DNA of 60,520 nt. It comes from Nanobdellota archaeon. GTDB taxonomy: Archaea > Nanobdellota > Nanobdellia > Woesearchaeales > UBA583. A program made the translations under genes and the position numbers. The DNA is taken from assembly GCA_048625195.1 (NCBI GenBank), contig JBMCRE010000005.1:1-60520 (forward strand), in the 5' to 3' direction. Below, piece by piece: positions 53,578 through 55,044 of the stretch (position 1 is its first letter; each line of letters opens with the position of its first letter). The notes beneath the pieces were generated by a model, which searched no databases, had not been told where the DNA came from, and was given only the letters and a program-made list of their open reading frames with translations.

Positions 53578-55044
53578 TTATTTATAGTATTTTTTTTTTA
53601 TTTGAGCTAAAACAGAATCAAAAAATCGTTCACAATGAAAAGTTACTTCATGGTGTTTAAATGTTTTTTCTGGATAAAAATTGAATTTTGATAAATTATA
53701 AAAGTTCTCTACCATACATGTACCACAATATGGTTTATAAACACATCTGTCACATTTTGAATTATTTTCTAACATAGAATTGAGAATTGCTTTTGAGACT
53801 TCTTTTTTTTTAAATAAATTTTGCCATGTATCGTTAAATACATCTCCTATCTTTAGTTCATCTCGGCCTAAAGCTTCATTACAAGTATAAATATTCCCAT
53901 TAGTGTGGTATACTATTTGTCCTGTTAGTGCACCACAAGGACTTTCATAATCTGTATGATAAGTTGGTTTATTCAATAATATTTTAGAATTAAACAAGAC
54001 TTTTATTCTATCTTCTATCTTAATCCCTTTTTGTGTTAGTTCATCTATATAATCTAATGATTTTTGATAAAACTCGACAAATTGGTTCCTTGTATAAAAT
54101 ATTGTCTCTTTTTCTTTTAGGGCTCTACCAATTTGTGTTAGTGGTCTTAAATCTATAATATTGATATCTAAGTTTATATATTCATCAATTATCTCTTTAT
54201 AATAATCCAAAGAATATTTTGTAATTGTCAAAAGCGCATTAACCTTAAGGGGTATTTTCTTTTGTTTATATTTTTCGTTGATTCTGTTTATCCAGTAAAT
54301 AACTTTTTCATAACTTCCTATAACTTCTACTCCTTTTTTATTAATTTGATTAATATGATTAAATTTTTTATTTAAAATAAACCTATTTTTATCATGGACA
54401 TACTTAGGACCGTCAAGAGATGTACAAAAAGTAACATTATGATCTATTAACCAATCAACTATTTTATCATTTAATAGTGTAAAGTTAGAAACTAAAGCAA
54501 ATCTTAGATCTTTTTGTAATGTTTTGTTTAATTTGTTTGCCTTTTCTACTATTGCCTGTATAATGTCAAACCTTGCAGTAGGTTCTCCACCTTGAAATTC
54601 AATAGTTATTGCTCGTGATGGTGATTCCATTATGAATTGGGTTATTTTTTCAGCTGTTTTTATATTCATATCTGTTTGTTCTATATTGGCATTCATATCA
54701 CATGAAGATGCAAAACAATAAACACAATTTAAATTACATCTATGTGTTGGTATCACGATATGAAGAGATGTTCCGTTATCTAAAAAAGAATATCTTTTCT
54801 TTGTTTGTTCAATTATTTGATTTATATTATTAAGAGTTATAATGAAACCTTTACTTTCTAAAATATCAAATGTTGCTTGATTTGTTATAAATCCTTTTTT
54901 TAAATTTCTAAATGATGGTTGATTTAAAAAAATAAAATTGCCAGTGTCTGTTGTTAAAAGGTAATGGTTTGTTTGTTTACAATATAGTTTATGTCTGTAA
55001 AAATTTTCAATATAATCAACTTGTGTTCTTTTAATAAATGACAT
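53578..55044 (-). CDS. hxsB: His-Xaa-Ser system radical SAM maturase HxsB-like (radical SAM/SPASM)
   Basis: YLLTTDTGNFIFL N-terminus; SLHIVIPTHRCNLNCVYC; SPSRAITIEFQGGEP; SPCGALTGQIVYHTNGNIYTCNE; CDRCVYKPYCGTC SPASM motif. Confidence 0.8.
   Translation of the reverse strand: MSFIKRTQVDYIENFYRHKLYCKQTNHYLLTTDTGNFIFLNQPSFRNLKKGFITNQATFDILESKGFIITLNNINQIIEQTKKRYSFLDNGTSLHIVIPTHRCNLNCVYCFASSCDMNANIEQTDMNIKTAEKITQFIMESPSRAITIEFQGGEPTARFDIIQAIVEKANKLNKTLQKDLRFALVSNFTLLNDKIVDWLIDHNVTFCTSLDGPKYVHDKNRFILNKKFNHINQINKKGVEVIGSYEKVIYWINRINEKYKQKKIPLKVNALLTITKYSLDYYKEIIDEYINLDINIIDLRPLTQIGRALKEKETIFYTRNQFVEFYQKSLDYIDELTQKGIKIEDRIKVLFNSKILLNKPTYHTDYESPCGALTGQIVYHTNGNIYTCNEALGRDELKIGDVFNDTWQNLFKKKEVSKAILNSMLENNSKCDRCVYKPYCGTCMVENFYNLSKFNFYPEKTFKHHEVTFHCERFFDSVLAQIKKKYYK

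Follow-up and report, generated by a model that had tools for sequence, protein, structure and literature searches.

The open reading frame at 53578-55044 of the window, by which the whole 60,520-nucleotide stretch analysed here is meant, encodes, judged by its sequence, an HxsB-type radical-SAM enzyme that is intact, in a tiny, uncultured DPANN archaeon. Probably the protein acts as the HxsB-type maturase in a variant of the His-Xaa-Ser system that belongs to Woesearchaeota-like DPANN archaea and whose genes genome rearrangement has scattered. In bacteria, the HXS system (HxsD-HxsB-HxsC-HxsA) guards against phage by blocking DNA entry, and it was shown to be an anti-phage defence only in 2026 (Li et al., Nat Commun 2026, PMC13128918). 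The survey of these systems was limited to bacteria, with 99.7% of them in Pseudomonadota (PMC13128918). As the partner genes and the likely substrate are present in the window's genome (an assembly of 838 kb in 23 contigs, 87% complete), yet scattered across it, hxsB appears to be an orphan by position only, and the archaeal system is, on this evidence, an undescribed variant of the bacterial one. The direct support for this reading comes from family membership, the integrity of the motifs, the presence and orthology of the partners, their clustering in relatives and phyletic co-occurrence. The features concerned are collected in Table 1.

Table 1. Features of the putative archaeal HxsB system; locations without a contig number are positions in the window.
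Feature	Location	Strand	Remarks
HxsB-like radical SAM/SPASM maturase	53578..55044	-	488 aa, stop-free ORF; TIGR03978, 357.9 bits; HxsB clade in tree
Radical-SAM cluster motif CxxxCxxC (C103/C107/C110)	54715..54738	-	all three invariant in a 15-sequence alignment
SAM-binding motif GGEP (residues 152-155)	54580..54591	-	sequence and 15-sequence alignment
SPASM region (C370, C388, C431, C434, C440, C443, C471)	53632..53937	-	
TATA-like TTTATATA	55066..55073	-	-29 to -22 from the hxsB ATG, 21 nt left to the start
Candidate HxsA-like precursor, 144 aa	4506..4940	-	sole genome-wide match to the precursor profile; conserved leader LPKPKKNLKSFILEEDAKVMDK
370-aa partner convergent with the precursor	3397..4509	+	C-terminal half with a prenyltransferase-barrel-like fold (AF2 pLDDT 87.5)
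A24 (FlaK/PibD-type) membrane peptidase	12947..14338	+	E 7.7e-14 against the cassette-peptidase profile; FlaK_Arch 40.5 bits
HxsC4-like second radical-SAM protein, 325 aa	contig 6, 16484-17461		HxsC4 is the best family
Short HxsD (HxsD_rel), 89 aa	contig 11, 3709-3978		NF038315, 52.1 bits (cut-off 41)
Prenyltransferase-barrel (PT-barrel) partner, ortholog of the relatives' 400-450-aa gene	contig 4, 50269-51651	-	model pLDDT 88.7

The family that fits the enzyme best is the NCBIfam equivalog TIGR03978 (HxsB), whose curated cut-off of 370 is missed by 12 bits, and the next NCBIfam family, PapB, reaches 145.9 bits. In plasmid tblastn searches, the best matches are annotated hxsB genes. The solved structures closest to it by sequence are those of CteB (PDB 5WGG, E 3.7e-24), with a match that takes in the radical-SAM core and some of the N-terminal region before it, and of the anaerobic sulfatase maturase (anSME) 4K36 (E 4e-12); no HxsB structure was returned by the PDB search. 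CteB/SCIFF is a thioether-forming radical SAM-SPASM maturase, but it belongs to another family, the SCIFF model giving 116 bits against a cut-off of 425, and its substrates are rich in Cys, not in His. Since the SPASM architecture is shared and 4K36 is a detectable relative, the protein might be an anaerobic sulfatase maturase or a SPASM enzyme of cofactor biosynthesis and not a peptide maturase. However, the anSME models score 65-100 bits on it against cut-offs of 349-441 (TIGR03942, 100 against 349), far from the 358 bits of HxsB. In a maximum-likelihood tree of 129 proteins (126 HxsB-like sequences plus scfB, peaB and nlpM, from a quick search with long outgroup branches), all 126 HxsB-like sequences form one clade, with a support of 100, to the exclusion of the other three. 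The window protein falls in a well-supported archaeal clade of 18 members, and the canonical plasmid hxsB lies within a bacterial clade that is itself placed among Woesearchaeota and Nanoarchaeia clades in this quick tree. An anSME or another non-peptide SPASM clade was rejected on the TIGR03942 score and the placement inside the HxsB clade, and the presence of the gene in only 11% of related genomes, in tight co-occurrence with a peptide precursor, also speaks against such a function, the probability of which is close to nil. The HxsB-like assignment of the earlier note is thus borne out, and in the phylogeny that it had called for, the protein groups with HxsB and not with the anaerobic sulfatase maturases.

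All the motifs that had been described as intact, namely CxxxCxxC, GGEP and the SPASM cysteines, could be located in the 488-residue frame. The SPASM cysteines, six of the seven invariant in the 15-sequence alignment, are spaced C370-x12-G-x4-C388 and C431-x2-C434-x5-C440-x2-C443, followed by C471, and the region is expected to hold two auxiliary 4Fe-4S clusters. Pfam recognises the Radical_SAM and Fer4_12 domains, and its SPASM model stays slightly under the cut-off (18.3 bits against 21.5). Upstream of the gene, the TATA-like box reported about 21 nt from the start is also there, and TTTATATA would fit a leaderless archaeal transcript for hxsB. It is weak evidence, and the support that it lends to a promoter is modest, because such motifs have a background rate of about 3.5% of positions for that interval in a window with a GC content of 23%.

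Within several kb of the gene, no precursor, HxsC or HxsD was found among the window's open reading frames or with the Pfam and NCBIfam models, as the earlier note had stated. This isolated position is not an assembly artefact, since a 99%-identical contig of a second assembly has the identical local gene order. The downstream neighbour has 633 aa, is N-rich and hydrophobic at its ends, and could plausibly be the surface protein that it had been taken for. For the upstream neighbour, a 202-aa protein (55209-55817, minus strand), the label of nucleotidyltransferase found no backing in any family match in Pfam, NCBIfam or PADLOC; the protein carries a GS...DxD pattern. PADLOC gave nothing beyond generic viperin-type radical-SAM matches. 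A neighbouring gene at 56104-57801 on the plus strand encodes a 565-aa Asn-synthase-like protein in which GATase and Asn_synthase domains are weakly recognised (97.7 bits, cut-off 267). The possibility that it is a peptide cyclase was rejected, the lasso cyclase model scoring 43.9 against a cut-off of 525 and the gene not being kept beside hxsB in relatives.

The bacterial genes, by comparison, are clustered: the four plasmid hxsB loci fetched with their flanks are all hxsD-hxsB-hxsC operons, with hxsA after hxsC in two of them and hxsA2 upstream in one. Together with the published account (PMC13128918), they confirm the clustering of bacterial hxsB with hxsA, hxsC and hxsD. Clusters are also found among the relatives of the window gene, which carry the names Woesearchaeota, Nanoarchaeota or Nanoarchaeia. 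An HxsD-family gene is adjacent to and directly upstream of hxsB in 38 of 40 related loci, divergent in the 60%-identity clade and in the same direction as hxsB in the 40%-identity clade. The common cassette of the latter consists of an A24 peptidase, a long HxsD, a short HxsD and HxsB, followed by a radical-SAM protein of about 320 aa, a small His-rich peptide or both. A further 80 loci from named genomes were compared. Of these, 48 encode a precursor close to hxsB, as a rule immediately downstream, and 33 have an A24 peptidase; the set includes Omnitrophota, CPR, Planctomycetia and Myxococcota, in which the peptidase gene is found at the opposite side of the cassette. One relative, the archaeon UBA583 (HxsB 51% identical), keeps five of the part types in one cluster, in which an hxsC-like gene, the precursor, a 400-aa PT-barrel gene, a long hxsD and hxsB lie within about 4.4 kb. 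Its precursor, an ortholog of the peptide at 4506-4940, and hxsB are some 1.6 kb apart. The genes for a PP-loop ATPase and RNase P p30, which recur near the cassettes in relatives, were read as background synteny.

In the genome of the window, the counterparts of these genes are unlinked. Of the 12 radical-SAM proteins encoded directly after hxsB in relatives, 11 align with the contig-6 enzyme along its whole length at 32-46% identity, and its gene is by sequence an ortholog of theirs. The contig-6 enzyme is the best match in the genome to HxsC (TIGR03977, 107-110 bits), far below the cut-off of 267.9. The contig-11 protein is detected by a short-HxsD profile with an E value of 5.8e-11 among 8,724 open reading frames. 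In both genomes of the genus, the HxsD_rel gene stands immediately upstream of the gene for the large subunit of DNA polymerase D (L076:3200-3454 in the second genome; G192 belongs to the same genus). A long HxsD was not found in the window's genome, where TIGR03976 (E 0.035 only) and profiles of 4 and 42 sequences gave nothing but the short contig-11 protein. Close relatives retain the long HxsD even when it is unlinked, one complete genome having hxsD 456 kb from hxsB, so its absence may reflect the missing 13% of the assembly. The dispersal of the pathway that had been proposed is therefore supported by the HxsC4-like protein on contig 6, HxsD_rel on contig 11 and the precursor-like 4506-4940, the long HxsD not having been found. 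In the search for HxsC and HxsD, likewise a suggestion of the earlier note, HxsD_rel passed its cut-off and an HxsC4-like ortholog was recovered, but the HxsC and HxsC4 scores fell far short of theirs.

Scattered genes in a reduced genome could also be a decaying remnant, that is, a system that is being lost and in which HxsB no longer works. The genes are unlinked, the long HxsD is missing, and searches of the 87%-complete assembly for SAM synthetase (PF01941, archaeal; PF02773, MetK C-domain) and for the SufBD core (PF01458) gave no match. Nevertheless, all the parts that are present are intact open reading frames with their catalytic motifs, and dispersal is common in the clade, down to the complete genome mentioned above and a genome of the same genus that also has the parts unlinked. 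At this level of completeness, absences are weak evidence. Decay is thus unlikely, and the gap in SAM synthetase and SufBD points either to import from a host or to the incompleteness of the assembly. At least three radical-SAM genes in a 0.84-Mb genome with no detectable SAM synthetase raise the question of the source of the cofactor.

The candidate precursor is encoded at the opposite end of the window. Its leader is followed by a hydrophobic segment and then by the His-Xaa-Asn runs HGNHTNHQN and HANHYNH, with five His-Xaa-Asn triplets in all. In the peptides of relatives, the layout is the same: the leader has the form PKxKKKxxSFLxxEDGKISK, and the hydrophobic segment is followed by an end rich in His, for example SHGSHSSY. 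The leader of the window peptide is of the type found in these cassette peptides. A profile built from ten cassette peptides encoded next to hxsB in relatives was run against the 8,724 open reading frames of the genome, and only 4506-4940 was significant (E 1.8e-6; next best 0.72). The TIGR03979 model (HxsA, His-Xaa-Ser repeats) matches nothing in the genome, and the HxsA3 model (NF038309) aligns weakly to the leader with 15.5 bits against a cut-off of 65. One of the relatives' peptides comes close to the HxsA4 model (NF038313), with 52.8 against 55. The profile search yielded no second significant precursor in the genome.

Orthologs of the peptide lie near hxs genes in UBA583, G192, L169 and L171; in G192, which is of the same genus, and in L171 the ortholog is found beside the PT-barrel gene, and in G192 it is about 0.9 kb from an hxsC-like gene. 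The peptide is likely the substrate of HxsB, a proposal of the earlier note that gains genomic backing from the sole profile match, the linkage in UBA583, the co-occurrence across the phylum and the lack of any competing conserved precursor in the genome.

Of 301 genomes sampled from the phylum, 33 (11%), in 25 of 224 genera, have HxsB, a patchy distribution that argues against a housekeeping role, and such a role was rejected. In the same 301 genomes, HxsB is present in 26 of the 30 that bear a precursor (Fisher p 4.7e-27), in 19 of the 21 with an hxsC-like gene and in 29 of the 32 with HxsD_rel, counts that come from genomes that are not phylogenetically independent and span 25 genera. At G181:C6:14730-15128 and G256:C31:71222-71566, a precursor stands beside HxsD_rel in genomes where a threshold of E <= 1e-40 yields no HxsB; these genomes may have a divergent maturase or a reduced form of the system.

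The enzyme could also be a true orphan that acts on another protein or on a small molecule, with 4506-4940 served by the HxsC-like enzyme only, or by none. Such a division would agree with the position of the G192 precursor, near hxsC-like and not hxsB, and with the bacterial pull-down, in which an HxsC-HxsD complex was recovered but no complex with HxsB (PMC13128918). Against this, many cassettes with the order HxsD, HxsD, HxsB and precursor lack an hxsC-like gene next to them, the parts are all clustered in UBA583, and HxsB accompanies the precursor in nearly all the genomes that bear one. Moreover, HxsA processing in bacteria requires HxsB as well as HxsC and HxsD (PMC13128918). An enzyme unconnected with the peptide is accordingly very unlikely.

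In addition to the HxsD and radical-SAM components, the archaeal system seems to include proteins with the fold of ABBA prenyltransferases. In the predicted model of the contig-4 partner, the C-terminal barrel is built of five beta-beta-alpha-alpha units, and the best 50 Foldseek matches in the PDB are all ABBA prenyltransferases (E down to 3e-9, TM by target 0.55-0.60). Its fold resembles those of the cyanobactin peptide prenyltransferases LimF, PagF and KgpF and of the indole prenyltransferases IptA and PriB. The 370-aa protein at 3397-4509, whose pairing with the precursor is also kept in L169, resembles them more weakly, its Foldseek matches being nearly all ABBA prenyltransferases with a modest TM of 0.3-0.45. 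The predicted models of both proteins contain the ten-strand antiparallel barrel, that of 3397-4509 with the lower TM. BLAST and single-sequence hhalign gave no sequence link between the two, which are joined by the predicted fold alone. Unlike the known ABBA enzymes, to which it has no sequence similarity, the contig-4 protein has an added N-terminal domain, with a Cys motif like the C-terminal end of HxsC4, and its fold is fused to HxsB in three relatives. These metagenomic fusions (P0060, P0067 and P0079, the last at L005:6001-8223) are about 740 aa long, P0079 being an N-terminally truncated copy of 617 aa. Their C-terminal extension of about 265 aa matches nothing in Pfam or NCBIfam, but hhalign (93%, E 3.4e-7) shows it to be homologous to the PT barrel, and the fusions are, by homology, a gene-fusion link between HxsB and the PT-barrel protein.

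Two kinds of membrane peptidase are linked to the system. On contig 4 (50269-53266, minus strand), the genes of a TPR-rhomboid protease, of a secreted protein rich in Cys (about 165 aa) and of the PT-barrel protein follow one another in a string, which is repeated at L170:3439-6320 and L171:3099-6272, and the TPR-rhomboid is a candidate protease for the leader or transmembrane segment of the precursor. The A24 peptidase has about 365 aa and a long extension at its C-terminus, and occurs in the cassettes L091-L153 (e.g., L114:9668-10834 and L092:3188-4336). As it is present in archaeal and in Omnitrophota/Planctomycetia loci at differing positions, a functional link is favoured over chance synteny. 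The window's own A24 protein is a weak candidate for a cassette-linked leader peptidase, its score being too low for an ortholog call.

The way in which the system may work is drawn from homology as regards its chemistry, the order of its steps, export and its biological role. The precursor would be made with its conserved N-terminal leader, which the HxsD-family proteins (HxsD_rel on contig 11) and HxsB's own N-terminal domain would hold, presenting the precursor to the radical-SAM enzymes. HxsB and the contig-6 HxsC4-like enzyme would each use the CxxxCxxC cluster for the reductive cleavage of SAM and modify the His-Xaa-Asn motifs by means of the SPASM auxiliary clusters; the corresponding bacterial chemistry is an unsolved change of +8 Da (PMC13128918). 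The two PT-barrel proteins could serve as further modifiers or as scaffolds. The hydrophobic segment would direct export, and a membrane protease, presumably of the rhomboid or A24 type, would take off the leader, so that the cell surface would carry the modified peptide with its many His residues. Envelope defence against viruses is one candidate role and the leading analogy with bacterial HXS; a reasonable alternative is that the His-rich product binds metal.

What the archaeal system shares with bacterial HXS is a radical SAM/SPASM enzyme of the HxsB clade, a second radical-SAM enzyme, small HxsD-family proteins and an exported, N-terminally processed, His-rich substrate with a three-residue His period, the export and processing being predicted in the archaeon from sequence and analogy. 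It differs in its archaeal host and in its genes being scattered and not in one operon. The repeats of the window peptide are His-Xaa-Asn, its conserved leader is long, and it does not match the curated HxsA model; as second enzyme, the system has a short HxsC4-like protein. Additional PT-barrel partners and, in relatives, linked membrane peptidases are further differences, and an antiphage role in the archaeon is a candidate by analogy. NCBIfam already has models for such variants in HxsA3, HxsA4, HxsC4 (NF038332) and HxsD_rel. Only the contig-11 protein passes one of them, the precursor falling far short, as does the contig-6 enzyme (125.5 bits against the HxsC4 cut-off of 500). A literature search on HxsA3, HxsA4 and HxsC4 returned no paper naming these variants.

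This case indicates that a multi-gene pathway can be recovered in a genome without operons through relatives that still hold the cluster. The short precursors, some of only 67-100 aa, could be easier substrates for the radical chemistry than E. coli HxsA. The HxsB clade extends broadly through Woesearchaeota-like archaea and also through several phyla of uncultured bacteria, where it goes with another type of precursor and has additional partners, namely proteins with the prenyltransferase fold and membrane peptidases. A wider conjecture, which is rather improbable as it stands, is that a distinct HXS-like class is shared by DPANN archaea and those bacteria of the CPR, Omnitrophota and Myxococcota in which leader-type precursors of the same kind occur. 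The surface peptide of this class, rich in His, modified and perhaps lipidated, would be produced jointly by radical-SAM enzymes, a PT barrel, in some cases fused to HxsB, and an intramembrane protease of its own, either A24-type or rhomboid, and episymbionts might use it to gate the entry of viral DNA or to contact their host.

The bacterial relatives of HxsB (CPR, Omnitrophota, Myxococcota and Elusimicrobiota; L109, L112, L114, L116, L117, L119, L123 and others) form a clade nested among the archaeal ones, and many of their loci encode precursors that match the archaeal precursor profile. Both observations suggest that the HxsB system has been transferred between the two domains.
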